62,741 bases of DNA, taken from positions 1-62,741 of the forward strand of contig QPMI01000663.1 in assembly GCA_004431415.1 (NCBI GenBank), written 5' to 3'. Under the pieces are notes generated by a model. The model made no database searches. It saw nothing but the letters and a program-made list of their open reading frames with translations, and had not been told where the DNA came from. Position 1 is the first letter of the stretch. The number at the start of each line of letters is the position of its first letter. Shown here one piece after another: positions 38,740 to 62,741 of this stretch. Made by a program: the position numbers and the translations under genes. Source of the DNA: Cyanophora paradoxa CCMP329. Taxonomy: Eukaryota > Plantae > Glaucophyta.

Positions 38740-38752
38740 CGCTACGCGGGAC

Positions 38753-39236
38753 ACAGAGGGGGTACGTGTACGGCAGCGTGACCTCCCACCCCCGACCAGA
38801 TGTCGGCCAATTCCGGGTCTACGCGTGAAGAGAGGGGGTACGTGTACGGCAGCGTGACCTCCCACCCCCGACCAGAGGTCGGCCAATTCCGGGTCTACGC
38901 GTGAAGAGGGGGGGTACGTGTACGGCAGCGTGGCCTCCCACCCCCGACCAGAGGTCGGCCAATTCCGGGTCTACGCGTGAAGAGAGGGGGTACGTGTACG
39001 GCAGCGTGGCCTCCCACCCCCGACCAGAGGTCGGCCAATTCCGGGTCTACGCGTGAAGAGAGGGGGGTACGTGTACGGCAGCGTGACCTCCCACCCCCGA
39101 CCAGAGGTCGGCCAATTCCGGGTCTACGCGTGAAGAGAGGGGGGTACGTGTACGGCAGCGTGACCTCCCACCCCCGACCAGAGGTCGGCCAATTCCGGGT
39201 CTACGCGTGAAGAGAGGGGGTACGTATACGGCAGCG
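38753..39236. repeat. Motif cluster 3: tandem array of 6 x 76-77 bp units
   Basis: cgaccagaggtcggccaattccgggtctacgcgtgaagagagggggtacgtgtacggcagcgtgacctcccacccc recurs at 38793, 38869, 38945, 39021, 39098 and 39175. Confidence 0.97.
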
Positions 39237-39397
39237 CCGCGTGAGACGACGCGCGAGGTTACGGAAATGCTCCCCTTTGTGTTTTTGCAACAACGAGCTA
39301 GAGTCGGGGCGCGTGCGTCCCAACCGACGCTGCACTGGCGTGCAGAAAAACAGAGAGGGAGAGGGGGGGGATGCGGGCGGGCGACGGCATCGTCGGC

Positions 39398-40009: not shown

Positions 40010-40298
40010 TTTTTCCGAGGGTGTTGGCGGGGGGAGGGTACGAGGAATCTGGGCGGGGCGCAGACCCTCCCCTCTACCTCCTAGGAGATCTCCGGGGGGT
40101 ATTTAGCCGTTTGCCCTCTGGCCCCCGCCCCTGCTACCCCCCCCGGCCCCCACCCCCTCCCCCTTTCCCTTTTCCCCCTCTCGCCCCCACCTCGCCGTTT
40201 CGGCCCAACGGACCGAATCGCACGACTCGGCGGCCGGTGGCGCCCCAACACATAAAAGAGAGGCGCCCCTCTGTCCGGGCGTCAGTCTCTACTCGACG

Positions 40299-43200: not shown

Positions 43201-46200
43201 CGCTTCGCGGCCCTCTCCTACCCCTCGGCGTCGGGCGAGCGCGTGCCGGTCGCCTGGACCGTCTACAAGGAGGCCCGCCCCGAGGAGCTCGCCGACGCCT
43301 CGTTCGTCATGTGCACGGTGCAGAGCGGCCGCCGGCTCGAGGGCGACTTTGACGTCGTCATCGTCGACGAGGGGGCGCGGGCCCTCACGACCCTCACGAC
43401 GGGCGGGCCGTTCAAGGGGCCCGAGCACCACGCGCAGACGGTCGCCTGGTTCGACAGGGCGCTGGAGGCGCCGGCGCTCGTGATCGTCGCCGACGCCGAC
43501 CTGCTGGACGAGGACGCCGCCCTCTACGCCGCGCGCCGCCCGGGGGCGGACGTCATCTCGTACCTCAAGCGCGGCAGCAACGACGCGCGCCTGCGCTGGA
43601 CGGCCATCGACATTCGCTACGCCGCCGCCGTGATCGCCGCCAAGCTCCTCGCCGGCGAGGTCGGCTACATCGCCTGCTCGACGCGGCGCGCCCTCTGGGA
43701 GATCGAGTCCATCGTGCGGCGCCACATGCGGCTCTCCGGGCGCCGCTGCGAGTTCCTGTACGCCGACGCGGACCGGCGCGCGAGGCAGACGATGACGGAC
43801 TCGGACTACGTCTGCTCCGCCCTCTGCTACGCTTCCAACTACGCGATGCCCCAGGGCACCGACTTTTCCAGCGGGCCGCCCGCCAACTTTGTCGCCTACA
43901 TCGAGGAGGGGCGGACCGCCGACGTCAACGCCGGCTTTCAGCTCGTCCGCCGCCGCCGTCACGTGATCGGGCCCGACGCCTTTTTCTTCTGCCGGTTCCC
44001 CCGCAAGGCCCCCCTCCCCGACCGGCAGGGGCGGCCCCTGCACGCCCCCGTCGACTGGCGGGCGATCTACGGCGAGCTGGTGGACTCGGTGCGCGCGTGG
44101 AACGAGCGGCTCCCCGCGGAGAGGCGCGTGGCGACCGAGGAGCACTACCTCCGCGTGCGGGCCGTCCGCACGGCGCTCCGGAACGCGACGCACGCGTGCC
44201 CCATGCTGGCGTTTCACCTGAAGCTCCGCTCGCTCGGCAACGAGGGCCTCTACGTGTACCCCCTGCCCCAGCCCCCGAAGAAGCCCAAGGGCGGCGCGCG
44301 CGCGGGCCCGAGCGCGCCGGCGGCGCCGGCGGCGGGGGGCCTCCCCTGGATGCCGGAGGGGTACTCGGACTCTGCCGTCCCCCTGGCGGCCGAGGTCGAG
44401 GCGCGCGAGCGGCTCCTCCCCATCGTCGCCGCGCCGCGGCTGCTGGGCTACGACTGCGCCAAGGCGATCCGGGGGGCCATGGAGTACGGGACGTCCACGG
44501 TGGAGGTCTCCGACGCGGCGCGGCGCGCCTGGAAGCGCGAAAAGGCCGCCGCGCGCTTCGGGCTGCGGCCCGAGCAGGTGGGCGTCGCCGAGGTCCGCCT
44601 CTCGGAGCAGAGCCCGCCGGCGGAGATCTTCCGCCTCTCCAAGCGGTTCGCCCTCGACACCCTCCCGTACCTCGCCTCGGGGGCGGCCCCCGACGAGGAG
44701 AGCGCGACGCTCCTCCCGGACCACCGCGAGCGGCGCCGCCCCTTTGAGAGCGCCCTGCGGCTCTTTGAGCTGCTCGGCGCGCGCGTCCCGCCCGGCGGCG
44801 GCGCGGCGGCGGCGGCGAGCGACGTCGCGGCCGGCCTCCGTTACCTCTTCTGGGCGACGTGGGAGGGGCCGGAGGACTGCGGCGCGGCGCGCCTGCGCGG
44901 GCTCGGCGAGGCGATCGAGGAGGGTGGCATCTTTACCGACGGGCCCCTCGGGCGGCTCTTTGCAAACGCCTGCCGCGCGGCGTGGGAGCGGATCGCGATC
45001 CCCTACTCGCCGATCGCCGCGTACCGCGCCGACGCCCTCCGCTGGCAGTGCGCCGAGCTCTGGCAGCTCGAGTGCCTCCGCCCGGAGAAGCGCAACAAGG
45101 GGGCCGCCCCTCCCCCGATCGGGGACTGCGCGCGGCGCCTCCTGCACGACCTCGTCGTCCACGCCGCGGAGCAGCTGGGCCTCGGCGTGCTCGTCGCGGC
45201 GGCCGACGCGCGGCGCGTGGTGCGGGGCGGCGCGCGCAGGACCGTCAAGCGCACGCGCTACTGCTTCGACCCCGAGACCGTCCTCCTCGGCCTGCGCCTC
45301 TACGGGCGCGATCGGGACGGCCGCGGGGACGTCCCGCCCGACGCGACGCTCGGGGCGCTCCTGGCGGCCGGCGTGCGCTCCCTCCAGATCGCGCTCGTCC
45401 AGGATCCAAATTCCAAGCTCCGGGCGGCGGGCGCGGGCGGCGGCGGCGGCGAGGGCGGCGAGGGTGGCGCCCCGGGCGCGCCGGCAGAGGCGGGGGCCCG
45501 CCCCCGCCCGAGCGACGCGGCGAAGCGCGTCGTCCGGCTCCTCAAGTCGGGCGTGCACTCGGCGGTCTTCTTCTCCGGGGCGGCGCGCGCGGTCCTCGGC
45601 GAGGACGCCGCCCGCTGCTGGCGCGGGGCCGGCGACGGGGAGGAGGAGGGGGACGGGGCCACCCGCGCGTCGCCCTACGCAGAGGTCCTGGCGCGCGTCG
45701 CCGCCTCCGAGGCCCCGAGGCCCTCGCCCCGATCGCGCCGCCCCTCGGCGCCGGCGCCGACCCGACCGTCGCGGCGCTCTGCGCGCGGGACCTGGCGCGC
45801 GCCGCCCTCGCGATGGACGACGGGGCGGCGCGGGAGGGCCTCGGCTTCCCCGCCGCGGAGGAGTCTCCCGCCCTCCCCACCGAGGACGTGACCTGGCTCC
45901 TCGGTCGCCTCGCCGAGGCCGCCGGCGCCCCCGCCCAGCGCGCCTCGGAGTGGTGCCCCGTCGTGGAGGGGCGGGAGGGGCCGGACCCCTGCGTCGGGTT
46001 TGCGTACACGTCGATCTTTGCGCGGGACCTCCCCCAGGAGCGCCGCACGCTCCCCTCGTCCGGAATCGACGTGGCGCGCACGGGCTCCGACACCTCGGGC
46101 ATCAGCCTCTTCGTGGACGGCGCGGCGCGGCTCCTGCCCGAGGACCTCGCGCGCCCGCGCGTCGCCCGCGGGCCGCGCTCGTGCGGGGCGAAGATGCTCC

Positions 46201-46298
46201 TCTTCGTACCCCGCTCCACCTTTCAGCACTTTGGCGTACCCCTCTTGGCCCTTCCCCTCCGCCCCGCCCCGGCACCTACCCCCGCTCCCCCTGCGTGA
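40299..46298 (+). CDS. ~2000-aa AEP primase(-polymerase) fused to Zn-binding motifs and an SF2 helicase of the herpesvirus UL9/origin-binding-protein type; two apparent frameshifts (~42250, ~45715)
   Basis: AEP motif I VFDFD and motif II FSGLKGFHVYV. CPH...HCYSLRC and CWSCGH...CGAAAC. Walker A IFVRAETGSGKT, Walker B DVVIVDE, and LVIVADADL, GYIACSTR, YASNYAMPQGTDF. Confidence 0.8.
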
Positions 46299-46510
46299 AT
46301 GCGAAATTCGATGTGCGGTCCGCGCCCCCTCCCCCCGCGCCGAGTCGTTTGAAAGCGCGCCGCCGCGTTGTGCGCTCTCCCAATTTGGCTCTTTTTTTGC
46401 CTGCCCGCCGCTTTCGCTTGATTCGGGCCCTCGGCGCCGATAAAACTCCTCTCCCCGCGCCGCTTGGCTCACTCTTTTTGCCTCTTCTCATCGCAGATCA
46501 CGACCTGGCC

Positions 46511-48367
46511 ATGGACTCTACCACGACGATGAACCCCCACGCAGACCTCGCCACGACGATGACCGCGGCCGGCGCTCCCCGCCTCGTCAAGAAACCCGTC
46601 AAGAAACCCATCAAGAGCGACTTCTGCACGCGGATGGACCTCCTCCCGGTCGACCTGTCCGAGGCAATCCTGCACTACCTCGGGCGCGAGGACCGCCTCA
46701 AGATGCTCACCGTCTCCCAGCAGTCCCGCTCCTTTGCGCTCGGCACCTCGGGCGTCTCGAGCGGCTGGTTCGACGCCCTCGCGGTCGACGACGCGCTCGC
46801 CCTGCTCGTCGGAGGGCCCGGCGCGCCGCGCGGCGCCCGCCTCCGTCTCATCGCGGGGCGCGGTCACGGGGCGGAGATCCCGATCCCGTCGCGCCTCGGC
46901 GGCCTCGACGCGACCTTTGCCCTCCCGACAGAGCCCGGGAGCGAGGGCCGCTGGGTGTGCATCCTCTTCCCCCCGGCGGCGGCGGCGGGGGCCGAGGACC
47001 TCTCCCCGCGAGGCGCCATCATCCGCTACGGGCCGGGCGGGTTCGGCGACGCCCTGCAGATCCCGGCCGGGTTTCCCATTCACGACTTTGCCCGCGGTTC
47101 CGTCTCCATCGCCGGCGACGGGACGATTGTGCTCGGCGGCGAGCGCGGCTGGCTCGTCTGGTCCGCCGACGGCGGCGTCTCGGCGGTCGACGTCGGCGCG
47201 GCGGTCGCCGGCGTGGTGGCGTGCCGCCCCTCTCCCGACGCCTCGCGCGTCGCGATCTGCAGCGTCGTCGGCGACGGCGGCTCCGCGGGCGGCCGCGTCC
47301 TCGTCCGCTTCGTGGGCTCTGGCGAGTCTGCAGAGGGCGCCGCCGCGGCCCCCGCGGCCGACGCCGGCCCCCTGCGCTCGACAGCGGCGCGCACGCGGCT
47401 CTCCCACGAGCTCGCCGAGGTGGACGGCTCCGGGGACCCCTCGGCCCTCGGCGACTGGAGCGACGTGCCCCTGCGCGAGTGCGACGCGAGCCTGACGTGG
47501 AACGCGCGCGGCAACGCCGTGCTGGTGCGGATCAAGGTGGCGCGCAGCGGTATGGAGGCGGGCGATGTGGAGATGGGCGACGCCGGCGGCGATGTCGACG
47601 TCGACAGGATGGAGGACGACTGCAGCGTCGACGAGCCCGCCGCCCGCGAGGAGGCCTTTGTCGAGTTTATCGCGTCGGTGCGGCTCTCGGGCGGCGCTGC
47701 GCGCCAGGGCTGGTGGATCGTCTGCGGCGCCGAGCCCGCAGAGGCCTTTGCCGTCGGTCTGGGCGAGAACTGGCTCCTCCACGCGGCTCGGGACGTGGGC
47801 GGCATCCGGAGCGCGTCCATGTACGTCTACTACCTCGCCGGTGGCGCCTCTGGTCGCCCCACCATGGTCGAGCTGCACATGCCCTGCGAGGGCAAGTCGT
47901 GGCGATGCGTCACGCCCGTCGGCGACTGGAACTTCATCTACCAGGCCGCCGGTCAGTTTGAGCTCAACGGGACCAGCGTCGATCGCCCTTTTCTGGTCTC
48001 CGTGACGCCCTACGCCCGCGACCTGGAGTATTTCGAGCTGCCCGAGGCCAGCGGTCTGCTGGAGGCGCGCTCCATCCGCCCGCTGGGAGCCGTCGGACTG
48101 CACGGGGTGGCGGCCCTCGCGGTCGGGACGGACCAGGACGCCCCCGCGCCGTTCAACGTCGTCCGGTACATCCGCTGGTCGGGGATCGGGAGGCTGGCGG
48201 GTCAGGGCGGCCCGTTTGCGGCGTCGATCAGCACCCACCTGCAGCACAACACGTTTCGGCCGACCCGCGAGTGGCTGGACGATCGCTACTACACCGTCGA
48301 GGGCGAGCGGCACAACAACACGCTCACGCTCTTCCCCGGCGAGCCGCAGCCGACGCTGCACGTGTGA
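46511..48367 (+). CDS. F-box protein with beta-rich (propeller-like) C-terminus, intronless (~618 aa)
   Basis: MDLLPVDLSEAILHYLGREDRLKMLTVSQQSRSFAL matches the F-box consensus LPxELxxxILxYLxxxDLxxLxxVSK. Confidence 0.75.
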   Translation: MDSTTTMNPHADLATTMTAAGAPRLVKKPVKKPIKSDFCTRMDLLPVDLSEAILHYLGREDRLKMLTVSQQSRSFALGTSGVSSGWFDALAVDDALALLVGGPGAPRGARLRLIAGRGHGAEIPIPSRLGGLDATFALPTEPGSEGRWVCILFPPAAAAGAEDLSPRGAIIRYGPGGFGDALQIPAGFPIHDFARGSVSIAGDGTIVLGGERGWLVWSADGGVSAVDVGAAVAGVVACRPSPDASRVAICSVVGDGGSAGGRVLVRFVGSGESAEGAAAAPAADAGPLRSTAARTRLSHELAEVDGSGDPSALGDWSDVPLRECDASLTWNARGNAVLVRIKVARSGMEAGDVEMGDAGGDVDVDRMEDDCSVDEPAAREEAFVEFIASVRLSGGAARQGWWIVCGAEPAEAFAVGLGENWLLHAARDVGGIRSASMYVYYLAGGASGRPTMVELHMPCEGKSWRCVTPVGDWNFIYQAAGQFELNGTSVDRPFLVSVTPYARDLEYFELPEASGLLEARSIRPLGAVGLHGVAALAVGTDQDAPAPFNVVRYIRWSGIGRLAGQGGPFAASISTHLQHNTFRPTREWLDDRYYTVEGERHNNTLTLFPGEPQPTLHV

Positions 48368-48706
48368 TCGGCGGCCCGTGCGCTCCCGTGCGCGTTTCTC
48401 TCCCGCGCCGCCGATCCCTTTCGTCCAATAGGATCGTCCTTATTGAATGTTACCAGTTTTTTTTTGCGTGGTGGGGGGCCGGGCCGGGGCGGGGGTGGTG
48501 GTAGATGGCGCGGGCCCGAGGGGTGGGGCTAGGGGGGCGGGGGGGGGCGGGGGGGCCGAGGGGGGTACCCTCTGGAGCACCGAGTTGGTTGAGCGCAGCA
48601 ACTTGAAGGCCCGATTCGGACGAAAGGGTCCCCTGGTCTCCCAAAAAGCCGAGCAGGTGCGCGATGCGGTCATTCTTTCTCACATCGTCAAGAACCGAGA
48701 ACAAGG

Positions 48707-49267
48707 ATGGCCGCCGCCCAGCCCTGGCAACACCCCCGTCGCAACGTCCTGATCGACATGGGAGAGCTGGTCAGCGACTTTTTCCGCTACAACTACGACG
48801 CCGAGGACGCCGACCTCTACGACAGCGACGTCGTGGCCCTCGCGACCAAGGCCAAGGCCGGCGAGGTCCCCGCGCGCGAGACGGACGACGCGCTCCAGAA
48901 GCTCCGGCCGACCGCGGAGCGCATCCGCCCCATCGCGACGGGCCTGTTCGCGGCGAGCGTCCGGCAGTACTCGGGCGGTCTCATCGAACTCCAGAACGTG
49001 TTGGGGCGCGCCTTTGCGAACCGCGTCGACGCGACCTTGGCCTCGCGCGCCCAGGGCCAGGGCCCGCAGGCCACCTCCTCCGACCTGGCGTACGTCGTCT
49101 TTCCCGTGGAGCTCTGGTACGAGATGCTGTCGTGCGCGGGATCCGAGATTCTGCACTTGGACCTGTACGAGCGCGTCGTCCTCGGGATAGTCCCCCTTTT
49201 CCTCACGATGCTCCGCGCCGGCAACATTCGCGTTGCCGCCGGCAAAGTTCTGTCGGCGATCTCGTGA
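48707..49267 (+). CDS. Intronless hypothetical protein (186 aa)
   Basis: ORF MAAAQPWQHPRRNVLIDMGELVSDFFRYNY... with GC3 bias. Confidence 0.7.
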   Translation: MAAAQPWQHPRRNVLIDMGELVSDFFRYNYDAEDADLYDSDVVALATKAKAGEVPARETDDALQKLRPTAERIRPIATGLFAASVRQYSGGLIELQNVLGRAFANRVDATLASRAQGQGPQATSSDLAYVVFPVELWYEMLSCAGSEILHLDLYERVVLGIVPLFLTMLRAGNIRVAAGKVLSAIS

Positions 49268-49587
49268 GCAGAGAATATATTGTGCCGAGCGCATTCAAAG
49301 TGCGTAGAGTTTTTGTGTGCGGTGTGGGACTGAGAATCGAACTGACATGCGCGCACGCGCGCGTGCTCTCGTTTCCGGCTCTACGCATAACTTTGGGGGC
49401 CAGCTCGAGCTCCTGGACGCACGGGCTCGATGCACGCGGGGCTCTCGAGTAGAGTCGCTGCAGTTTGGCGCGCGCGGCGCCGGCCCCAGAGCGCGCGTGA
49501 GGGCATTTTCGTGATCAAGAATGGTTTTTGTTTTATCTTTCAAACAATCGACGTGCGGTTGCGGGGTGCCTGGGGGATTTTCGTACC

Positions 49588-50560
49588 CTGCCGCCGTCGC
49601 CTCATAGAGCCGCGATCGGCCGAGCTCTGTGCAGGGGGGGCAAGGGGGGGGGGGGGGGGGGGGGGAGCGGAGCGGACGGGGGTACGGATCAGGAAGCGTC
49701 CGGCATCGCCCTACCCTCGGCGGCAGCACCCCCTGCGCAGAGCTCGGCCGATTCCGGGGCGAGAGAGAGGGCGAGAATAGACAGAGGGGTACGCACCTCT
49801 GCCGCCGCCGCTCATAGAGCCGCGATCGGCCGAGCTCTGTGCAGGGGGAGGAAGAGAGGGAGGGGCGGAGCGGGCGGGGGTACGCATCAGGAAGCGTCCG
49901 GCATCGCGCAGCCCTTGGCGGCAGCGGCCCCTTGCGCAGAGCTCGGCCGATTACGGGACGAGGGTGCGAGAAAATAAGCAGAGGGGGTAATCACCTCTGC
50001 CGCCGCCGCTCATCGAGCCGCGATCGGCCGAGCTCTGTGCAGGGGGGGCAAGGGGGAGAGGGGCGGAGCGGGCGGGGGTACGCATCAGGAAGCGTCCGGC
50101 ATCGCGCAGCCCTTGGCGGCAGCGGCCCCCTGCGCAGAGCTCGGCCGATTACGGGGCGAGGGTGCGAGAAAATAAGCAGAGGGGGTACTCACCTCTGCCG
50201 CCGCCGCTCATCGAGCCGCGATCGGCCGAGCTCTGTGCAGGGGGGGCAAGGGGGAGAGGGGCGGAGCGGGCGGGGGTACGCATCAGGAAGCGTCCGGCAT
50301 CGCGCAGCCCTTGGCGGCAGCGGCCCCCTGCGCAGAGCTCGGCCGATTACGGGGCGAGGGTGCGAGAAAATAAGCAGAGGGGGTACTCACCTCTGCCGCC
50401 GCCGCTCATCGAGCCGCGATCGGCCGAGCTCTGTGCAGGGGGGGCAAGGGGGAGAGGGGCGGAGCGGGCGGGGTACGGACCAAGGTGAGCGTCCGGTATC
50501 GCGCCCTACCCTCGGCGGCAGCGGCCCCCTGCGCAGCGCTCGGCCGATTACGGGACGAGG
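49588..50560. repeat. Motif cluster 4: 5 tandem ~198-bp units, each with two inverted copies of the motif
   Basis: gagccgcgatcggccgagctctgtgcagggg at 49607, 49817, 50015, 50213 and 50411, each followed by cccctgcgcagagctcggccgatt. Confidence 0.96.
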
Positions 50561-50891
50561 GTGCGAGCGCGGGCAGACAGAGGGGTACGTAAGGTTTCGC
50601 TACGGCGGAAACGACAGATCCGGCAAAGGTCGAGCTCGGATCGGGCGGCCGTGCACGGGCATCTCACACGCACCCGGCAAGTCGATCCGCGCGCCGACGC
50701 CGCCCGCCACCGGGAAGCCCGCACCGTACCCCCCAAGCGCCACAGAAAGGACCGATTCGCGCGACTCGGTCCCGACAAACGCATAAAGGACCTCGCCCGC
50801 CGCCGTCGCGGTACTGCGGGCCGCCCCACCGCGCCCCTGATACGCAGCACATCGACAGCGCGCGCACCGACTCGCTGAGCGGGGGTGGAAC

Positions 50892-51566
50892 ATGTGCCGC
50901 GAGGGCCAGCTGGTCACGACGCGCGACGGGGACGTGGTGTGCGATGCCTGCGGCGCGGCCGAGGCGGTCGTCGGGACCCTGGGGGGCAGCGAGAAGCCGG
51001 GGGCCGACGAGAGCCCGCCCGCGTCGCCCCGCGAGCCCTCGCGGTCCGAGGTCCGCATGGGGCGGCTCCTGGAGGGCGCAGCGTCGGCGCTGGGCCTCGC
51101 CGAGGCGGCGGTCCACGAGGCGCGGCTGCTGCTGGCGGACCGCGGGCTGCTGAGGGGCAGGAAGAGCGAGATTATCGTCGCCGGCGCGCTCTACTACGCG
51201 GCGGCCTCGGCCGGCGCCCCGCGCACCGTCGACGACGCGCTCGGCTGGCACCCCGACCTGCGCACACGCCGCGCGGCGCTCGTCAGGATGGTCCGCGCGA
51301 TCCACCGCCGCCGCGGCGTCGGGCGCATCCCCCGCGCGCCCGACTACGTCGACGCGCTCGCCCAGCGCGTGGGGCTGGACGGGGCGGACCTGCGGGCGGC
51401 GCGGGAGTACGCGGAGCGGCACCGAGACTCGGGAAGGAGCCCGATCGTTGTCGCCGCGGCGGCGTTGGTGGAGGCGGGCGGCGCTTCGACGCGCGAGGCC
51501 GCGCGCGCGGCCGGCATTACGACCGTTGGCATCCAGGTCTGCATCAAGGCGTTCGCCGCCGCCTAG
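50892..51566 (+). CDS. TFIIB-like transcription initiation factor (Zn ribbon + cyclin folds), intronless
   Basis: C..GQLVTTRDGDVVCDACG Zn ribbon; ASALGL...HEA..L...LLRGRKSEIIVAGALYYA...PRTVDD cyclin repeat; second repeat GRSPIVVAAAAL. Confidence 0.82.
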   Translation: MCREGQLVTTRDGDVVCDACGAAEAVVGTLGGSEKPGADESPPASPREPSRSEVRMGRLLEGAASALGLAEAAVHEARLLLADRGLLRGRKSEIIVAGALYYAAASAGAPRTVDDALGWHPDLRTRRAALVRMVRAIHRRRGVGRIPRAPDYVDALAQRVGLDGADLRAAREYAERHRDSGRSPIVVAAAALVEAGGASTREAARAAGITTVGIQVCIKAFAAA

Positions 51567-52388
51567 AGGAGAGCAGAGCGTCATCGCGTGTCGCATGTTG
51601 CTGTTTTGCGAATACTATGCGAAACTAAATGCCATTTGCGCGTGCGGGAATGGGGCGGGCGGTGCACCGCCGGATCGAGTTGCGGTCGGGTGGCTCGGCG
51701 GCTCGCGGCGGCCCAAGGCGCCTGCGCGCGGCTTAACGCGACTCTAGAGTCCTATACACAGCACCGAGACCTATCTATGGCGTCGCTGCCGCTCCAGGCC
51801 GCCGCCGTGACGCCGCGGTCAACCTGCGCCGCGCACGCAGCATGCGGGCCGCCGGGCCCGTGGCCGGGAGCCGGAATCTCGCAGTCGCGCAACTAGCAAA
51901 AGCCCCGAGAAGAATCTCGCCGCCCGCGCCGCTCGAAGCGATCGGGTACTGGTACCGAGCCGCCCCCTACCTCGGACTTGGGCGAATCCGAGTCGCCGAG
52001 TCCAAAGTCCAACTTTTGCGGCGGCGGCGGGCGCGCCTAGACTCATCTTTGCCGGCATATAAGACCTCTATCAAGTTCATTTAGCTGGGGCAAGCCGCCC
52101 GCGGGGCCCGCGAAGGTACTCGTCCGAACCGAACGATCATCGCGCGGCACGGGGAAAATCACGGGTTCGAATGCGCCCGTCTCCTCTTTTCGGGAAAGCT
52201 TACACGTCGCGCTCGCCTAGCCCTAGTTTTCTGCCGGCGCTGGCGCTAGAGGCCGCAGCCGCAGTCGCCGCGCATCCGCGAGCTCGCACCCCGCGCGCGT
52301 GGCGACGAGCTTCCCGGCCCGCGGCTCGACGAGCTCTCCGCGGGCTCTCCCGGCTCGTGTAGCGCCTCTGTCGATCGTAGAGAGCCGA

Positions 52389-53003
52389 CTAAGCCGCGTC
52401 CGAGGACGGGCTCTCGCCTCCCGCATCGGCGCCCTCGGGGTTGACGTGGACGGCGATCTGCGTGCCGCCGCCGGCGCTCCACTCGGCGGCGAGCTTCTTC
52501 ATGGCTTCGACGCGCTTCGATGCGGATCCGGTGCGCCCCTTGAGCGCCTGCTCGTAACCCTGGGCCAGGCTGCGGTTGGGAAACGGCGCAGCGACGGCGA
52601 GGAGCCGCCAGGGCCCGCGGCTCTTGGTGAACGAGCCGCGGATGGTGCCGCGCGAGTGCTCCTTGAACCGCCGCGCGAGGCTCGCCGTCTCGCCGCAGTA
52701 GAACATCCGGCCGTTGTGCAGCAGGTACACGACGTGCTGCTTCTCAAACTGGTGGTGGAACGGGCGGGCCTTGCCGCCGCCGCCACCGCCGCCGCCGCCG
52801 CCTCCTCCCGCTGCGGCCTTTGCGCCGACGCCGACGCCGCCGTCGCCCCGCTCCCCGTCGGCGCTCCCCTTGTCCGCGTCGGAATTCGAATCCTCGTTCG
52901 TCTCGCCGCCCCCGTCCCGCCGCTCCTGCCGCCCCTCGTCCCCGCCAACGGCGTGCGCAGGCGCCGGTGCGGCCGCGGCCAGCGACGTCGGCTCCGCCTC
53001 CAT
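52389..53003 (-). CDS. GIY-YIG nuclease, SLX1-like
   Basis: HVVYLLHNGRMFYCGETASLARRFKEHSRG..GSFTKSRGPWRLLAVAAPFPNRSLAQGYEQALK. Confidence 0.85.
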   Translation of the reverse strand: MEAEPTSLAAAAPAPAHAVGGDEGRQERRDGGGETNEDSNSDADKGSADGERGDGGVGVGAKAAAGGGGGGGGGGGGKARPFHHQFEKQHVVYLLHNGRMFYCGETASLARRFKEHSRGTIRGSFTKSRGPWRLLAVAAPFPNRSLAQGYEQALKGRTGSASKRVEAMKKLAAEWSAGGGTQIAVHVNPEGADAGGESPSSDAA

Positions 53004-53097
53004 GCTCCCGAAGAAAGACGCTCGCTCTGCTGGTTCGCGGTGCTGGCAGGTGCGCCCTGCCCCTACACTCCCCGGGGCGGGCCCGGCACGCATCGCT

Positions 53098-56000
53098 TTA
53101 TGCGTTCAGCAGATGCCCTGCCGGTACAGGAGCCTGCGGCGGCGGCGGGGGAGGCGGCGGCGGGGCGGGGCTGGGCTTGAACCGCTTCGGCGGCCCCCCG
53201 CTCGGGGGCTCGACGCGGGCGACGGGGCGGAGGATGCCGGCGGGCGGGCGCGCCGTGGGCGGCGCCGGTGCGCAGAGCAGGGCCGGAGGGGGGCAGGGGT
53301 GCGGGGGTCGCGGCGTGTCGGGTCGTGCGCGCCCGTCCATCCCTCGCCGCTCCCCTGCCACGAGCCGTCGCCGACCCCGCTCCCATTTGCAGGATCGGAG
53401 CGCAGAGGGCCGGGGGGCGCCGCCCCTCAGCCAGGGGCCGCGCCTTGGGCGGCCTCCCGCGCCGCCTCGCGGGCGGGGCGCCCCGCCCGCCCCGCCCCCG
53501 CCGCGCGACGACGAGGAGGAAGAGGCCGGCGGCGGCGAGGGCGCCGGCCGCGCAAAGCCCAGGAGCTCCAGCACCGCTCGGCGCCGGTTCGGATCTCGAC
53601 GGTGCCGTTGCGGCCCTCGAACTCGACGGGGAAGAGGGCGCTCACGCCCGTCCACTCGCGAGGTCCGCCCTCCTGGCTCGCCGTCCACGCCCCGCCGAAC
53701 CGCTTCAGCAGGACGAAGCGGGACTCGAACTCGCCGCTCGGCAGGTCGATCGTCTGGACGAGGCGCGCGTACACCACGTTGGGCAGCGGGCTCGCCGCGT
53801 GCGTCGCCAGCGCCGCCACCACCTGCCCCGCCGCGTACGGCGAGGCCGACCGCCAGCGCAGGTGGTAGAGGGGCGGCGGCGGCCCCGCCGCGGGCACGGC
53901 GACGGGGGCGGGAACGGCGCCACCGCGGCCCGGCCCCAGGCCCCGCCGGCGGCTGAGGCCACGCCGGCGGCCGCCGCGGATGAGCCCGCGGGAGCAGTAG
54001 CTCGCGTGGTGCTTGGCCCCGGCCGCGTTCTTGAACGCCTCGCGGTGCGTCGGGGGCGGTAAAGGCGGGAGGGCGCGGGGCGCGGGGCGGGCGCGGTCTC
54101 ACCCGGTCGCAGGGCTCGCAGTAGCGCTGCTCGGCGATCGCCAGCGCCCGCTCGACGGCATAGTCGGCGTCCCAGGGCCGCCGAGGGCCCCCCGCGCTGC
54201 CGGTGCGGCGCCGCTTGGCCTCTTCCGCGCCGGCCGAGCCGCCCCCGTCCTCCTCGTGCTCTTCCTCTTCCTCCTCCTCCTCCTCTTCCTCTTCGCCCAA
54301 GTCGAACGAGCTGGAGCTCCCGCACTTGCCCGCCGGCTCCGGGCTCGTCGACGGTGTCTGCGTCTGCGTCGCCGGCGCCGGCGCCGCCTCGCCCCCGTCC
54401 TCTTCCCCTTCCTCCTCCTCGCGCCCCTCGTTCTCCTCCCTCGCCGCCTTGTCGCCGCGGCGCCCGCCGCCCGTCTCCCGCCCCTTGTTCCGCCCACCCC
54501 CTCGGCGCGCCGCGCGGGGCGCCGCCGGGCGGGGTACGGGGTCGGCCGTCGGCCCCTCCAGGAGCGGCGGCTCGGGCCCGTCGGGGCTCTCCCGCGCGCG
54601 GCGCCTCTCCTCCCCGTGCTTCAGCGCCAGCTGCTCGAGGTACGCCACCGCCGAGGCCGCCGCGCGCGCGCGGGCCGAGTAGTCGTAATTCTGCGTCGCA
54701 GTGATGACGCTGTGCCCCAGCAGCTTGGCTGCGCGGGGAGGCGCGGTGACGGCGGGCGCAGCGGCGGGGCGCGGGAGCGGGCGCGGGCGCGGGAGCGGGG
54801 GTACGGCGCACCCGTCCCCTCGACGACGGCGGCGGCCGTGTCGCCGGAGATGCGATTCGCGGCGGCCTCGTCCCGCACGTGCGTCGTGATGATGGCGCGG
54901 ATGGCCTGCGCCGTCACCGGCACGCCCGTGTACTTTTCCGTCACCTGCGGTGCGTGAGCCTGTCCCCTTCAGCCCGCCCGCCCCCTCGCGCGCCTTTTTC
55001 ACAAAGTTGCTCCAGCCGGCGTCGGAGAGGAGCGTTCCCGTCGGGCCGGTGAAGAGCCAGCCCTCGTCGGCGGCGCCCGTCGTCGGCGGGAAGAGGAGGC
55101 GGCGGTAGCGCTCGACGTACAAGGTGAGCGGCTCCTGGACAAACCCGGGGATCGGAAAGGTCATCGCGCCGGCAGTCTTGGCCGTCTTGGACGAGAGGAC
55201 CGGCTCGGCGCCCCCGACATCGATTCTCATCTTTGTGAGCGCGATCGCCCACGCGCCCTGGTCCCGTCGGAGCGTGTGACCGATCCTGCGCAGGGCGCGC
55301 GGTGGCCATGGGGGCGGGGCGGGAGGGGTGGCGGAGGGGGGGGTACGGCACCTGAGGCGGCGGACGATGCCGACGCGCGAGGGCGTCGAGACGAGGAGGG
55401 AGAGGAGGAGCCCCTCGCGGAGGGCGAGGGCCTTGTCGTACTCGAGCGGCGCCCGCTCCGCCGCCTCCAGCGCGTCCAGCCGCGCCGAGAGGAGCGTCTC
55501 AAACGGCACCCAGTTCGGTCCGCGCTCGCGCCACTTGACCCCCTCGCGCTTCTCCTTTCTCAGCTGGGCGAGCAGGTTGCGGAGGCCGCGGGCATGGGGC
55601 CCCTCGGAGCCCGACGCCGCGCCCGACGTGCGCGCGTGGACAAAGGCGTGGGCCTGGAGCGCCGCCTGCGTGTACCCCGCCAAGGTGGCGGCCTGCACCT
55701 TGCGCTCCCCGCGGAGAAACGTGAGGAACCGCATCCACAGGTCGATGAAATCGACGCGGGCGCCGGAGAAGAGGTCGAGCGTCGGGGCGCCGTCGATCTT
55801 CTCGCGGAGGGCGCAGTACCCCAGGAAGCGCAGCAACGTCGTCCGCTCGTTGGCCAGCGTCGAGGAGCGCTCGACGGCGGCGCCGGGGCGGTCGGGGTTG
55901 AGGGCGCGGGTGCGCCACTCTTCGTACGCGGCGAGCTGCGCCTTGAGCTCCCGCGACTGATCCTCCTCGCGCAGGCCGTACGGGGCGGCGCGCTCGGCCG

Positions 56001-56197
56001 ACGGCTCCTCGGCGGCCTCGGCGTCGGAGCCCGCGTCGCCCGGCGCCGGCAGCGGCGGCGGCGGCGGCGAGCTAGAGGGGGAGGACGACGGGCCGGCGCC
56101 GGGATCGCTCCCCTCGCTCCCGGAGCTCGTCGAGCTCTCCCCAAGGTCGACGGCTCGAATCACCACGGCGGCGCCCGGCGGAGCCTGGCGGGACGCC

Positions 56198-56228
<31 letters not shown>

Positions 56229-57926
56229 GGGGCCGCTCCTCGGCGGGGAGGACCACGCGCTCGGGGTCCGGCAGGGCGTCGGCGTCAAAGAGCGTGATCG
56301 ACGGGTCGAGGATCATGCTCTCCAGCATCGACCGGTACGCCTGGCGCTTCTCCGCGATAAACTTGGCGTTGTCCTTGGCGACGGCGTCTGACATGGGGCC
56401 CCCCGGGCGGTAGAACATCAGCTCGCCGTGCGCCAGCTCGTCCGACCACGAGAAGCCCGTCGCCGCCTCCAGCGTCGCGCCCTCGGCGAACCAGAGGATC
56501 CCTGCCCAGGGCCCGTCAAGGGGGCGCTGCGGGGATGGGCGCCGAGGGAGAGGCGCGCACACGGCCCGCACTGGTACCCGTCCACCTGGAGCCGCCCGCC
56601 GCACGTCTCGTCCACGTACTGGTGCGCGGGAAACGCCGCCTTGGCCGCGTAGACGAGCGACGGGTCGCAGGGCTCGCCGAGCGAGTCCCAGTACCGCGTC
56701 TTCGCCCCGCCGAGCACGAGGAGGGTCCAGTGGCCGCCGCTCGCCGAGCGCTTCTCGGCCCCGCGGCGCACGAGGCTCGTCGAGACGGGGCAGATGACGG
56801 TGCCGCCCCTCGCCACGAGCGACAGCGCGCGCCGCTTACGGCGCTCCTCGCTCGCAGCCGCGTACCGGCGGAGGACCGAGGCGAGGATGTCGACGCTCAT
56901 CGGGTAGAGGGCCCGCACGCGGCCGTTGTTGGCCTTGCGCAGGATGAGGGTGAGCACGTTGGCGATGTGCGTGTCCGTGAGCCACTCGCGCGCGCCAAAG
57001 ATCGGGACGCGGCGCGCAGGCGGGACGGGCGCGGGAACGGCGGCGGCGGCGGCGACGGGGTCGGCGCCCTCGAGGACGAGCCGCTGGCGCTTGAAGTCGG
57101 CGAGGAGGCTCGCGTCGCGCCCCGGTAGGTCCTTTAGGAACATTTCCACGCCGAGCGCGCTGATGAAGCCCCAGGTGCGGGCAAAGCCGCGCGAGGCCTC
57201 GCCCTCGACCTCGGAGCCAAGGCCGGCGTACCGCGTCAGCGTCTGCGTGACGAGGCCGAAGCGCTCGCGGCCGATGCTCAGCGTCGTCACGTTCCAGCGG
57301 TGCGGCCCGTCCCGCGCGAGGTCCGGGAGGCGCTTCTCGATCTCTCGCCGCACGCAGTTTGTGTCGCGGGAGGAGCCGTAGAGGGCGTCGGCGAGCGAGG
57401 CCATCGGCACCCAGAGCTGCAGGTCCGGCACCTCGATCCGCTTGGCGCGCAGCGCGTACATGCGCTTGCCGCCGACGCGTATGACGTGCAGGTCGAGGCG
57501 CGCGAGGGTGCGGGGCCGGCGGCGCTCGTTGGCGGCGTAGAACGAGGCGGCGGCGGCGCGCTTGCGCTGCTCGTCCGTGACCTCCCAGGCCTCGGCGACC
57601 ACGTCCAGCACGTAGCGCATCGCCACCATCCGCGGCGGCGACTCGGGCGTGCACTCGCGCCGGCGGACGGCGCCAGGGCCTCGAGCAGCAGGATGGCGTT
57701 CTCGTCGGGCAGCGGCCGCGTCGGCACTCCGTAGCGCGCGGTGAGGAGGTCCTCGGCCTCGGCCTCGGGCCCGTCGGGGTCGGGGCGCGGCTCGCCGAGG
57801 ACGCGCGCCAGCTGGGCCGAGCACGCGGCGGGGCCCGCCGTCGTCGGAGGACGACGAGGCGCTCCGGCCCCAGGGCCCCGCGTACTCGACGAGCTCGTAG
57901 GCGTCGTGCACCGTCGGAAAGGACAT
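53098..57926 (-). CDS. Multi-exon fusion: N-terminal domain + Ulp1/C48 cysteine protease + tyrosine recombinase + C2H2-like finger
   Basis: Protease: EWLTDTHI, GHWTLLVL, YWDSL, QVDGYQCGP|WILWFAE (intron ~56502-56560 keeps the frame). YR: STPSRVG (R), SSKT (K), QAIR (HxxR variant), LLGHS (H), QNYDY (Y). Downstream CEPCDR..FKN..AKHHASYC. The 3' end is approximate. Confidence 0.82.
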
Positions 57927-58450
57927 TGCGGCGGCGCAACCGATCGCGGGCGGCCGCGTGGGACGGGCCGCGGGGCAGCGGTGTGGGCCCCGCCAACTCT
58001 TACCCCAAGGAGCAATGGGGCGCTTGGATTTATGTATCTGCCCTGCGCGATTGCGAGCTCGAAGTAGATAGGGGTACAGTTTTCGGTGCTCTCTGCAGTA
58101 AGGGTACAGGCACCGCCCTCTCGCCCTCCCCCCCCTCCCTTCTTTTTTGGGGGGGACGGTCGCAGTCGGTTCATCCCTGCACGCCACGATGAAACAGTGT
58201 CACAGTGCTCGAGATCTCGTACCTGTTTTGATTTCAAATTCCCACCTTGGTTTTCAGGTTTCCCTTCAAAAAAGCTTTGTGAAGCTTATAATTAAGCGAT
58301 CGCAGCTCTAAATGTCTATCTCGAGTCAAATACAGAAATAGAGCCCCACCGTGCTGCCATCTGTATCGTCAGGGAGATCTAGAGCTCGAGGCTATAGCTA
58401 TAGCTAGTGGTCTGACGAGATCTATAGAGCGAACATCAACATTGATATCG

Positions 58451-58873
58451 ATGAGGCTTCTGTGCTCAGACGGCGAGACGGTCGTGTGCCCGGGGGCCCT
58501 GGTCGCTGACAGCGAGCTCCTTGCCGACGTTTCCGAGTGCTCAGATGCTCACACAGACGCCATCCCCATGCCCATCACATCGACAGTCATCCTCGCGGCG
58601 GGCATCGCCCTCAACGACCGCTCGGCCTCCCGACCTTTCGCCTCGCTCCAAGTTCCGCACGGCGGGCCCGATTCGCGAGCGGCCCCCGCAATGGCCCTCA
58701 TCGCCCGCCTCGGTGTCGCCGCAGAGTTTCTTCGCGCTCCAAAGCTCGCACACGCGTGCGCAAAGCTCTTTGAGGGCGCGATTACGCACGAGAAGGCTCT
58801 CGGGGAACTCTGGGAGGATCATGTTCGATTCGCGACCGGCGCCGCCCGCAGCGGGTTCGGAAGCGCAAGATAG
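58451..58873 (+). CDS. Skp1/BTB-POZ-like protein
   Basis: MRLLCSDGETVVCPGALVADSELLADVSECSDAHTDAIPMPITSTVIL...LGVAAEFLRAPKLAHACAK resembles Skp1 (L.SSDG..F.V...A..S; IPLP; LI.AANYL.I..L...C). Confidence 0.7.
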   Translation: MRLLCSDGETVVCPGALVADSELLADVSECSDAHTDAIPMPITSTVILAAGIALNDRSASRPFASLQVPHGGPDSRAAPAMALIARLGVAAEFLRAPKLAHACAKLFEGAITHEKALGELWEDHVRFATGAARSGFGSAR

Positions 58874-59040
58874 AGGAGACGGTCCCCTGTAAGAATCAGA
58901 GCGATTGATCAAAGCCATTACAACCGCTCAGAGGCCTTTGCACGGCAGTGGGTACCGCCGGTTCCATGGGCGATGCGAGGGCGCGTCCGGGGGGAGGGGA
59001 CGGGCCCCGGGCCCCCTAGGGTTATTTTTAGAATCGATCC

Positions 59041-59345
59041 GGGTTCCGCACCAAAATTGTTTTTGATGTCTACGAGCCCTCCCAATTGCTTGCGATGCGT
59101 TGGTGCGGGGCCCTCATTTTATTTTTCCGGTTTTTTTGCAGGGTTGGGATCTGTATTGGACCTTTTGCTTTTTTGTTTTGGAAATTTAGAGGGCCGACCG
59201 GCACCGCACCTCTTTTGCATCCGAGTGTTTCGTGCATGCACTAACTGCATTTGCGTGTTGGTGCGGCGCGAACCCAAATTATCGAGGTTGCCGCCCCCAG
59301 CCATTTCCATACATGGCCAAGTTTGGATTTTTTATGTTGGCGCGG
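59041..59345. promoter_or_regulatory. Putative recombination junction (attP-like) with symmetric TTGGTGCGG boxes centred on 59156
   Basis: ccgcaccaa 59046-54 / ttggtgcgg 59258-66 and ttggtgcgg 59100-08 / ccgcacc 59204-10 are both symmetric about 59156. An extra ttggcgcgg lies at 59337. The repeat boundary is at 59161. Confidence 0.65.
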
Positions 59346-59469
59346 CAAGCTCGCTCATGATGCAGCATTCAGAGGGGTATGCCCCCGTATGTACACTCGC
59401 GCGGCGGGCTCTGCTCCTGCTCCCGTCGCGCTGGGGGCGGGCAGGTCGCCGCCGGCGTCCGGCACGCCC

Positions 59470-60396
59470 TCACTCGTCCGCCCCGCGGATCTTTTTGCGG
59501 AGCTGCATATCCTTGGGCTGGATTGTGATGCTGCGCGCCCCCGGCGGTTACGTGCCCCTGCACGGGGCGCTACAGAGTTTTGGAGGGGGTAGAAGGGGCG
59601 GCACACCGCTTGGCATGGATCGCGAGGAGGTTGCTCCCCTCGAACGTCTCGATGGCGTAGCTGCGTCTCGACGATCAGTTGCAGAGCTCAGCATTTTGTA
59701 TACTTGTAAATCTCGCGCACTGCTCGGTGGCCTCGCGGAGAGCAAGGACGGCCTGCCGGCACCAGCGAAGAGCGGGAGTGTCGGTCAGCCTTGCCTCACG
59801 AAGCTCTTTCAGGACATCTTCGGTGATCTCCTTGACGGTGCGGGTGAATGGGGCCAGCGCAATGATGGGTTCGGTTCGCTTCTGCCACTTGCGAATCTCT
59901 CTGCGAGCGACGGAGCATCGGATTAATATTCACTGAGCCTCCTGCACTTTAAACTTAGACAACGTCATGATCAATTGCAACGTACCGGAGGGCAACCGTG
60001 CTCCGCAAAGGCGTGCGCGGTTATAACAAATCAGATATATAGAGATCTAGAAACATTAAGAATTTAATGATAGTCACTTTAAAATAGCTATAGTAAGAGA
60101 TCTAGATCTAGAATGATATCGATCATGATACGATGACATTTGAACCACTTATAGTCACTTTAATTAATTTAGCCTTTTGGGTTCAACGGTTACAAGGCTC
60201 GCATACTGATCATGATCATGATCATGAACATGAACTCGGACCTGGACGGTAACGGTGAGGCTTCTTGACGCCTCCTGCGGCAGGAGCCGCTTTACGGGCC
60301 GCCTTCGACGCGAGCTTCCGCTCGCCTATGTTTGCGAATCGCTTCCGCGGGGCCTTGCCCCCGTGCTCTTTTGCGCCGTGTGCTTTGTCCGTGCAT
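59470..60396 (-). CDS. Second copy of the histone H3 variant gene (1-nt indels, probably sequencing error)
   Basis: Same sequence as 11594-12525 except single-base deletions (e.g. gtgcat vs gtgccat at the start codon). Confidence 0.8.
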
Positions 60397-60547
60397 CTGG
60401 CTATAGTTTGCTTGGGCCGAAAGGCCCTGTGGCCTCGCTGGAGTGCACACGCGCGGGTGCTCTTATTTATATATTCGTATACACATATGCATGTACACGG
60501 ATTTTTTTTGCGTCGTGCATTTTAAACTCATGATCAGAATCAAGAAA

Positions 60548-62569
60548 TCAAGGGGCGTCGGACTCGGATTTCGAGCCATCGGCGTCCGAGGCCCCCGCGG
60601 CCTTGATGCGAAAGACGTTCTTCGGCATGCGAACGAGCGGCTCGCCCTTGCTGTCGACGAGCTTCCTCACGCGCTCGTCGAGCCGCTTCTCGATCTCCTC
60701 GAGCGCCGCCTCGTCGGCGCGCTGCAGGTTGGGGAGAAAGGCGACAAAGTCCGCCGGGCTGACGCCGTCGCCCACACGCGCGCGAGGCCCGGGAGGCGCT
60801 GCAGGACGCGGGCGCAGGCGGCCAGGTCCGAGTAGGCCTTGGCGCACACCGAGCGCTCCTCGAGGCGGAGGCCGCAGGCCTCGAGGATGTGGTTGTAGCG
60901 CGGCTCGACGCGGTCCGCCGAAAGTAGCCCCAGCTGCGGGGGTTCCGCCCGTTGGCCTCGACGTAGCGCTCGTACGCGCCGAGAATGCCCGTCGAGGCGA
61001 GGAGGAGGCAGCGGATCCGCTCCCGCCCGCGTGCTGGGCCCGCAGGAGGAGGGCCCGCCGCGCCGCGGGGTCCCCGTCGAGCTGGATCCCGACGAGGGCG
61101 GCGTCGACGCCGCGCCGCAGCCCCCGCTCGAGCTCGCGGAGGGAGAGCGTCCCCTCGCTCCTCTCCGAGACCGCTCTTCCCCTCGCCGCCTCGCCGCCGC
61201 TACCGCTGCCGGCGCCCTCGTGCTCCGCGTCCGCGTCCGAGCCCGAGTCCGACGTCTCCTCGCCGTCCCGATCCCCGATCGGCCGCCTCGAGCTGGGTCT
61301 CGAACTCGGCCCGCTTCTGCTCCTCCCACTCGTTTCATCGGCCCGTCCTCGCCGGCGGGCTCGCCTCCGGATCCACCTCCGCCGCCGCGCGCCGGGGGCC
61401 TCGGTCTCCTCGCCTCGCCCTCGCCCTCGCCCGCGCCATCCTCGTCGTCCTCCTCGTCAAAGTCCTCGCGCTTGCACGTGTAGGCGTCGTAGAGGATGCG
61501 CTGCAGCTTCTCGCTTTCCCACGGCGGCCGCCGCTCCGACGAGGCGGGGCGGCGCTGCCGCTTGGCCGGCGGGCCCTTGGGCGCCTCGATGGCCAGCGGC
61601 GGCTCCTCGTCCTCGAGCTCGTCCTTGTCCTCGGCGGCCGCGGGGGCCATGCGCCTCGCGCGCGTCGCCCGGGCCGCCGGTGCCGGCGCCGGCGCCGGAG
61701 CTCCCCCGGCCGCCGCCGCAGAGCTCCCCTCGGCCGCCGTCGAGGCCTGAGAGGCCCCGGCGCGCCCCGAGCGGCGGGGCGTCGACGCGTTCGAGTCGGC
61801 CCCGCCCTTGCGCGCGGGCGCGGCTGGGCGGCCGAGGGGGAGCCCCGGCGGGAGGCTCCTGGGAGGCAGACTCGGCCGGCGGGCCGCCGGTCCCCTGGAC
61901 GAAGAGGGCCCCGCCCCGCCGCTCGTCGGGGGCGCGCGGCGGCACGAGGTCAGCGCGGCGAGCTGGATGGCGCGCGAGACGCCCTCGGCCGCCGTCCAGG
62001 ACTCGGGGCGCTCGGCCTCGTGGACAAAGGCGCGGTAGGCGAGGTAGCCGTCGACGCGCGACGAGGGGACGAGGGCGGAGAGCGTCGGGTGCGGCTCGCT
62101 GCACGCGCTCTGGAGCATGGGGCACTCGATCTCGCCCTCTTCGTCCCCGGCCGCGCCCGTGGGCGCGAGAACCTGCGCAGAAGGGGGCGATGGGCGGACT
62201 CCGGGAGCGGGGGGGAAGGTGGGGGTACGGGCGCGGGGGCGGCACCTTGGGGACGCAGGCGAGGCACACGAGGCCGTGGCGCTGGAGCAGGTGACCCGTC
62301 GGCTCGTCGTTGAGGTCGATCGCGCGGTCGAGGTCGCCCCCGCCGGCGAGCTCGGCGATGTTCCTGGCCAGGCACGCCGGCACGTACGCCGGCGGGAGGA
62401 GGCGCTCCGCGGCGCAGACGCTGCACCGGGGGCGCACGTCGAGGTCGAGCCATGCCGAGATGTACTTGGGGCGGGCGATCCGCACGGGCCGCGCGTCGAT
62501 CGGCGGGGCCCCCGATGCTGCCTCCTCCTGGGAGGACGCCGCCTGCTTGCCCTTGGCCTTGGCCCCCAT
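60548..62569 (-). CDS. Second copy of the RING-like/acidic protein gene (indels)
   Basis: Copy of 12677-14708. Confidence 0.6.
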
Positions 62570-62741
62570 CGAGACCGCGGGACCCGTGTTCCCGGTACCC
62601 TCCCCGCTCGAGTCGAGGGGGGTACGCAGGCCCTTTCAATCCTGCACGCGGGAATGAGACGGACGGTGTGCGACGTGCAGCCATTTATGAATTCTGGAGC
62701 TACACGTCCCGTCTCGCTTTCCTTGGTGCGCACCTGCGAAC

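Follow-up and report, generated by a model that had tools for sequence, protein, structure and literature searches.

The stretch of Cyanophora paradoxa CCMP329 DNA analyzed here (62,741 nucleotides of contig QPMI01000663.1, referred to below as the window) is eukaryotic in character, with GC-rich genes and short introns. It comprises a host flank, one complete unit of ~47.9 kb, and the first part of a second unit (Table 1). The host flank carries a plus-strand gene (1-4100) with a P-loop (GEAGYGKS) and helical repeats, judged by eye to be like AAA_16/adenylate-cyclase-associated ATPases. This flank is low in GC and also contains a hairpin at 9879-10003 (55 bp, 96%, 15-nt loop), close to incomplete TGGTGCG boxes (9779, 9856 and 10067), which is perhaps the end of another element.

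Table 1. Features of the window and the evidence on which each assignment is based
Feature	Position	Strand	Basis
attL spacer TGTAT-GCGT, host side of left junction	11276..11284		sequence; one of two TGTAT-N4-CCTTTT sites
Whole unit, ~47.9 kb, between two 9-bp spacers	11285..59151		repeat spacing 47,876; read-contig ends
Left-end 63-bp box module; third box (8/9) at 11461	11328..11390		sequence
Tail-less histone H3-like gene, short introns; second copy at +47,876	11594..12092	-	PF00125 E 3.3e-7; PDB H3 E ~1e-7; EukProt P0101, P0102; exon limits inferred
Multi-exon gene, no meaningful Pfam or PHROG match	12710..14720	-	coding score
Putative Tet/2OG-Fe(II) dioxygenase, HxD motif	17067..19058	-	motif by eye; no Pfam match
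Putative SET-domain gene	22239..23337	+	motifs by eye; single exons without Pfam match
AAA+ ATPase pieces, not A32-type	29358..29989	+	PF00004 E 5.9e-6 and 7e-3
RING finger gene	39437..40000	-	PF13920 E 3.7e-5, under curated cut-off
AEP-like primase fused to UL9-like SF2 helicase	40299..46238	+	AEP E 0.02-0.04 (weak); Atlas 0.97-0.98; fused models P0003, P0005
F-box-like protein	46499..48364	+	PF00646 E 0.067, weak
TFIIB-like gene	50877..51563	+	PF00382 E 5.4e-7
GIY-YIG nuclease	52428..52784	-	PF01541 E 9.9e-9
N-terminal domain + Ulp1/C48-like protease (H, D, Q, C motifs) + tyrosine recombinase (R, K, QxxR, H, Y), spliced	53571..57926	-	translation; paralogue models
Right-end 63-bp box module	59046..59108		sequence
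9-bp core TGTAT-TGGA, end-to-end attP-like joint	59152..59160		centre 59156; read-contig boundaries 59160/59161
Second unit, first 3.6 kb, leaving window	59161..62741		0 substitutions vs first copy, 21 indel columns
Second unit's left-end box module; third box 59337-59345	59204..59266		sequence

The right end of the unit meets the left end of the next at a symmetric joint. A 9-bp core, TGTATTGGA, has its exact centre at 59156, 43 bp from either inner box, and the same position is the centre of two mirror runs of lengths 9 and 7. An earlier note on this DNA had described two nested inverted box pairs around this centre and right-half boxes at the left host junction. The centre held, and exact TTGGTGCGG sites were present at 59046 (-), 59100 (+), 59258 (+) and 11382 (+), whereas the boxes at 59204 and 11328 (CCGCACCTC) matched at only 7/9 positions and those at 11461 and 59337 (TTGGCGCGG) at 8/9. 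One extra, unrelated copy of TTGGTGCGG at 30796 lies inside a coding frame and was taken as chance. Each end carried the same 63-bp module, CCGCACC-N47-TTGGTGCGG, a pattern without a match among 100 shuffles. The ggccctc/gagggcc pair reported near the boundary was present as well, centred at 59152, and the motif TGTAT-N4-CCTTTT, read at both junctions, proved to occur in the window only at 11276 and 59152. Three of the four N bases differ between the attL spacer and the joint spacer.

Dinucleotide shuffling of the two arms (n=5000) never placed both mirror runs (≥9 and ≥7) on one centre ≤10 bp from the boundary (0/5000). A mirror run of ≥9 alone was reached by 65/5000 shuffles, and so was a looser statistic, any 7-mer occurring four times in 300 nt (65/5000). 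Across the window both runs were found at 29 of 124,882 centres, three of which also shared a 7-mer; the remaining two of these three were low-complexity, 59156 being the exception. The 95 bp separating the inner boxes had an AT content of 57%, versus 31% for the unit. No core-type inverted half-sites were found around the 9-bp core, no long inverted repeat linked the two ends (25 longest pairs; self-BLAST), and an Rfam search gave no matches. A search of the host flank for end-like sequence returned a single 14-bp match (E 0.17).

The two copies of the repeat (11276-14880 and 59152-62741) were 99.3% identical at a spacing of 47,876 bp, and differed by three substitutions, all within N4, and 21 indel columns. 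Beyond the core the second copy is substitution-free but indel-rich and stops with the window, like a collapsed repeat. Public short-read contigs from four runs (X1, X2, X12 and X14) filled three of its indels in 4/4 runs and two more in three runs, and it is thus best regarded as an error-rich sequence end. At least half of the junction-region words were contained in 14 of the 24 listed short-read runs, all from one organism. The right-end contig terminated exactly at 59160 in X1, X2 and X14, as a branch point would give, and in X1 one contig ran from 59160 into non-element DNA (ACTACTCAG...), a candidate attR; right-end/host joints thus numbered at least one among the 24 of 83 loose ends listed. 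The far right end had been predicted to stop near gggttgggatc(tgtat) and to join host DNA; the stop and the X1 joint agreed with this, except that the stop lay four bases later, at 59160. In X1, X2 and X14 the right ends kept TGTAT+TGGA, and attL carries GCGT.

Contigs carrying a T>C variant at 59173 ended 18 letters away in X1, X2 and X14; if words of 31 letters were used, we infer that they converge at 59161 as a shared left end. An X12 contig (59131-59333), which has the 59173 variant absent from the window, spans the joint with 30 letters on the left side, one short of the 31-letter bridging rule. Both ends were thus fixed at 59160/59161 in three runs, and the left/host joint lies within the window. 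Because the read contigs place both ends at this position, 11285-59151 was read as one 47.9-kb unit. These end positions, together with the recombinase gene near the right end, support the earlier proposal of an attP-like joint at 59156 and an attL near 11280, the latter likely being 11276-11284. An X12 loose end before 59149 was considered as a second attL and rejected, since its 25-letter side, which jumps to 59879, was too short. Three further features of the left end were seen in the read contigs. A second variant of similar depth occurred at 59384-59539 and 59630-59899 (7/156 and 13/144 differences). Positions 59174-59413, including the boxes, formed a single contig in three runs, and conservation seems to be higher at the end than in the adjoining sequence. 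Many loose ends at 60195-60227 and a 168-bp skip (60026 to 60195), found in 4/4 runs, may be read as a small repeat or another element boundary within the left end.

Going inward from the right end, the first gene to be identified, ~1.2 kb in, was the protease-recombinase fusion gene, in agreement with the tyrosine recombinase that the earlier note had named as the acting enzyme class. Its product has an N-terminal domain followed by the Ulp1/C48-like protease, an acidic linker and the recombinase. Paralogue models bore out the exons and the fusion of protease and recombinase, and three 1-bp gaps in the 5' part of the gene in the window were filled in 4/4 runs. The protease domain was recognized by its motifs and a weak PDB match to NopD (E 0.03). 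The N-terminal domain, which we had presumed to resemble Ski/Dach DNA-binding domains, received no Pfam or PDB support in that role, and this assignment was dropped; its homology probability with the N-terminal domain of relatives was only 2.7%.

For the recombinase domain of the window, Pfam gave no match and PHROG only an integrase match at E 0.095, while the ESM Atlas placed it at 0.98 with phage-integrase clusters (10/10 named matches concurring). The catalytic R, K, R and H were conserved in ≥90% of 21 aligned relatives, and the Y was read by eye; the first catalytic His is Q in the window protein and mostly K or R among the relatives. A single-sequence structure model of the window recombinase was unusable (pLDDT 42). 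A relative with 36% identity (P0010) was modelled at pLDDT 82.9 and matched Xer/Cre best (Foldseek probability 1.0, TM 0.44-0.60 to Cre, E ~1e-3, none counted at 1e-3 or better), as well as giant-virus and phage integrases. The catalytic residues, and the Cre/Xer-like fold predicted for this relative, assign the window enzyme to the tyrosine recombinase superfamily.

The histone H3-like protein lacks the N-terminal tail. Its gene lies ~310 bp from the left end and, in the joined form, just upstream of the recombinase gene on the same strand. The two EukProt models that match it represent four accessions, of which one pair may be this locus and was not counted as independent. In one X12 contig 6/7 variants in the H3-like exon were silent, a bias that hints at selection in a second subfamily. 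Atlas clusters matched by the primase-helicase carried Herpes_ori_bp on 31-53% of members, and three other C. paradoxa models of this protein were found. The calls of SET-like, Tet-like and F-box genes are weak or at motif level only, as is that of a further multi-exon gene at 19436-21786 (-), which has a CxxC pair and an EQKLDG (KxDG) motif as in nucleotidyltransferases and no database match. Genes for a capsid (major capsid protein or penton), A32 and pPolB were not found in the 148/395 frames picked by composition or in 38 and 25 exon segments, as searched with general profiles and with frames split by introns. Of six Walker A matches only that of the helicase was credible; the Walker A of the AAA gene is split by an intron. 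Among the Pfam matches there were no Nucleocytoviricota core genes (capsid, PolB, A32, VLTF3, RNA polymerase), but only the TFIIB-like and UL9-like genes.

A palindrome-containing motif, TCGGCCGAGCTCTG, was present in 18 exact copies plus variants in the unit only (0 in 1-11284). It formed clusters at 15006-16214, 35418-35954, 38634-39194 and 49616-50549, with tandem units of 76, 69-83 and 198 bp in both orientations. The clusters resemble dispersed viral origin or enhancer repeats.

A protein search over 1.84 billion representatives yielded 84 proteins related to the recombinase at E ≤1e-3. Six of the closest were named C. paradoxa EukProt models, and two further models share the naming style; six models aligned to the protease region and the recombinase of the window protein alike. 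Within C. paradoxa the fusion family showed 41-80% identity, and a tree (short search, midpoint root) placed seven C. paradoxa rows on one side of a branch with SH-aLRT 90. Other helicase and H3-like copies show that further genes of the element are multi-copy, and on one contig paralogues of the recombinase and the helicase lie 12 gene models apart. Recombinase relatives were also found in metagenomes, where 95/201 candidates were confirmed and 79 loci kept; no candidate was confirmed in IMG/VR (0/64, 0/24 and 0/48) or in prokaryote genomes (0/81).

Neighbouring genes were scanned in 89/182 frames from 22 of the 25 metagenome loci ≥4.5 kb, three near-duplicate loci and likely antisense shadows being omitted. 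Most loci had no diagnostic neighbour. The exceptions included an A32 ATPase (E 1.6e-5) and, by eye, protein-primed-polymerase motifs at locus L033, a similar ATPase motif at L028, a D5-like helicase and methylases at L035, and a protelomerase and DEAD helicase at L030. Neither the unit nor these 89 frames contained a reverse transcriptase or RNase H match. The end boxes had no DNA match in the 79 loci, other genes of the element were absent by tblastn (0/25 segments), and phmmer returned weak RING and GIY-YIG matches only. An OTU-like GNGDC motif was present on the recombinase strand in 11/79 loci by pattern match (L003, L008-L011, L014, L015, L022, L030, L031 and L036), and fusion of the recombinase to ubiquitin-like proteases may therefore recur in the family. 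Locus L030 (1-18249) appears to be an unusual virus-like element, with SET-like and cysteine-protease-like frames and ~170-180-bp repeats in addition to the recombinase family gene and the neighbours named above. At L009 a perfect 2,994-bp inverted repeat (4467-7460 and 16078-19071) reaches the recombinase gene start and encloses a pogo-like DDE gene; it is either a true terminal repeat or an assembly fold-back.

From these data we consider it quite probable that the unit is a recombinase-mobilised giant element of 47.9 kb, caught as a circle joint or in a tandem array, with the joint of right and left end at 59156. The tyrosine recombinase encoded by the element likely produced this joint, which likely equals the attP of the circular form. 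We lean slightly towards the two units being a chromosomal tandem; that the assembly ran on into a circle, or into an array at another locus, is plausible at somewhat below even. Either arrangement requires the same joint. The recombinase is predicted to hold both 63-bp arm modules, and strand exchange within the 9-bp core would excise a circle whose joint has the sequence at 59156 and which could be copied by the element's primase-helicase. Re-insertion would occur at host TGTAT-N4 sites, with identity needed in TGTAT only and mismatches allowed in the last four bases. One history would fit all data: insertion of a TGGA circle into a GCGT target would leave GCGT at attL and TGGA at attR, and a second insertion into attR, or integration of a dimer, would create a head-to-tail array with a joint of the 59156 type. 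AttR would be open to a second insertion because its TGTAT-TGGA end is itself a TGTAT-N4 target. The putative protease may strip off SUMO or ubiquitin, and host silencing may be opposed by the chromatin genes; C. paradoxa is described, in the accessible text of PMC12344493, as methylating repeats and viral genes.

An assembly chimera with symmetry by chance could draw on the indel-rich second copy that stops with the window, but it is hardly tenable. The joint is crossed by a short-read contig from another run, X12 (30 letters on the left side), which disfavours the chimera that the earlier note had given as a refuting outcome. No shuffle reproduced the symmetry, and a random chimera would be unlikely to land on its centre. 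It is very improbable, too, that a single element has long direct repeats of 3.6 kb at its termini and that 59161 marks nothing more than the inner edge of the repeat. The second copy is indeed visible for 3.6 kb only, and the left-/right-end depth ratio was 1.43 in X1, against 0.88, 0.96 and 1.00 in the other three runs. However, in X1 the right end continues past 59160 into non-element DNA, and the mirror geometry would be left unexplained. Moreover, the depth of 60003-60357 relative to the right end was 1.11, 0.71, 0.80 and 0.86 in the four runs; ratios near 1 and not 2 speak weakly against a terminal repeat, contig depth being a weak measure.

Two other explanations accept the joint and are each rather unlikely. 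Its mirror boxes might bind the UL9-like helicase or another protein of the element, so that the joined ends build an origin existing only in the circle or array; this would be compatible with a recombinase-mobilised element, and we give it a minor chance. Herpes origins have inverted boxes flanking an AT spacer, and in favour of such an origin are the resemblance of the helicase to Herpes_ori_bp clusters and the A/T-rich interval between the inner boxes. A dual use has also been proposed for Polinton-like viruses, whose end repeats would be substrates of the recombinase as well as of the primase-helicase (Barth et al., PMC11296320, accessible part). However, the inverted module is already present on each end alone, an origin-binding domain was not identified in the helicase, and the TCGGCCGAGCTCTG clusters, confined to the unit, offer an alternative origin. 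Slightly less probable still is a proviral reading, in which the unit would be an integrated virus, either Polinton-like or small and related to Nucleocytoviricota, with capsid genes that escaped the search and with an ordinary proviral attP as its joint. The viral genes and motifs adjoining recombinase relatives (A32 ATPase and protein-primed-polymerase motifs at L033, D5-like helicase at L035, protelomerase at L030) point this way, as do the giant-virus proteins among the best viral fold matches. Capsids may be overlooked, since those of one PLV group are often missed by the profiles of other groups (bioRxiv 10.64898/2026.06.19.733378, accessible text) and introns can split motifs, as in the AAA Walker A. 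In contrast, the frames and exon segments searched yielded no capsid, A32 or pPolB and a credible Walker A in the helicase alone, several genes have spliceosomal-type introns, none of the IMG/VR candidates was confirmed as a relative, and the unit, at 47.9 kb, is larger than PLVs are said to be (14-40 kb; PMC12220804, accessible text).

To place the recombinase-mobilised element among known systems, we relied on the accessible portions of the publications cited in this and the following paragraph. The recombinase has its relatives among those of Polinton-like viruses, and not in Tn916 Int. In its genes the unit is closest to PLV end modules (PMC11296320, PMC10120064, PMC12220804, bioRxiv 10.64898/2026.06.19.733378). 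Like Gezel-14T and CBEV_PLV1 (PMC11296320), it has recombinase, GIY-YIG and primase-helicase in its right-hand part, and its recombinase family is common to metagenome loci bearing PLV-type genes. The combination of a YR/rve integrase with a primase-helicase or pPolB that characterizes PLVs was thus found, whereas the size of 14-40 kb with frequent terminal inverted repeats was not. The unit is larger and has no capsid or A32 match, and it has introns, an SF2 UL9-like helicase and the protease-recombinase fusion; in place of long terminal inverted repeats it has short, spaced boxes.

In its manner of working the unit is like Starships and phaeovirus proviruses, without the genes that define them. 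With Starships (PMC10104507, bioRxiv 10.64898/2026.09.21.753150) it shares a size of tens of kb, a recombinase as the first identified gene at one end (here 1.2 kb inside the right end), a short motif common to element end and target (TGTAT, at both junctions), a circle joint and the form of a capsid-less cargo carrier. Unlike Starships it is non-fungal and has its own primase-helicase, symmetric arm modules and a 4-bp mismatch inside the core; neither the captain domain DUF3435 nor another Starship captain had a Pfam match in the window protein or 55 relatives. The endogenous giant viruses of Ectocarpus (PMC13236599) likewise have an algal host, a recombinase near one end and an attP formed from conserved ends, with 2-5 bp of homology with the target. 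These phaeoviruses, however, are complete viruses of the Nucleocytoviricota that form virions, and their junctions read CC-CC; the one right-end/host joint seen here is without CC. CTnDOT and Tn916 (PMC2817482, PMC5812530) offer a parallel for arm-like boxes around a core of which the left part is conserved and the rest non-matching: the CTnDOT overlap combines a short matching part with variable coupling bases (PMC2817482), and the Tn916 integrase tolerates heterology, tandem ICE arrays being known (PMC5812530). In the unit, N4 differs between attL and the joint, and TGGA was constant at the right ends in X1, X2 and X14, with one host joint. Unlike these bacterial elements the unit is eukaryotic, spliced and without conjugation genes, and none of the 81 prokaryote relative candidates was confirmed. 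It also differs from DIRS/Ngaro YR retrotransposons in having no reverse transcriptase or RNase H match.

Tentatively, we propose that giant transposons which lack a capsid and replicate themselves form a family outside fungi, which would derive from a Polinton-like-virus end module. Such a family would combine bacterial-style symmetric arm sites, a mismatch-tolerant 9-bp core, a fusion of recombinase and SUMO-type protease, and anti-silencing chromatin cargo (tail-less H3, SET-like, Tet-like, RING, TFIIB), as a eukaryotic counterpart of an integrative element. An element that circularises and re-inserts through this joint would belong to the large integrating elements that to date have been found chiefly in fungi, viruses and bacteria. 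The locus also points to a path by which Polinton-like viruses could have given rise to cargo transposons like Starships. In the literature searched, and in the accessible text of its sources, eukaryotic tyrosine-recombinase elements with mapped attachment sites are few (Starships and phaeoviruses); for PLVs, the end repeats are proposed as substrates without a mapped crossover in the accessible part of PMC11296320. The present locus supplies base-exact candidates for attL, an attP-like site and attR, as well as the arm boxes and the enzyme that belongs to them. With these, and in an alga that can likely be cultured, integration by this recombinase family can be tested directly. It may also become an algal tool for large-DNA integration. 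The literature searched, with most subscription papers outside its scope, held no description of the element, nor of any fusion between a recombinase and a SUMO protease. The C. paradoxa genome paper gives 11.5% unknown repeats and, in its accessible text, does not mention recombinases or viruses (PMC6704402). Giant-virus endogenous regions have been reported in C. paradoxa, with no loci named in the accessible part of that report (PMC12344493), and these might include the element described here.
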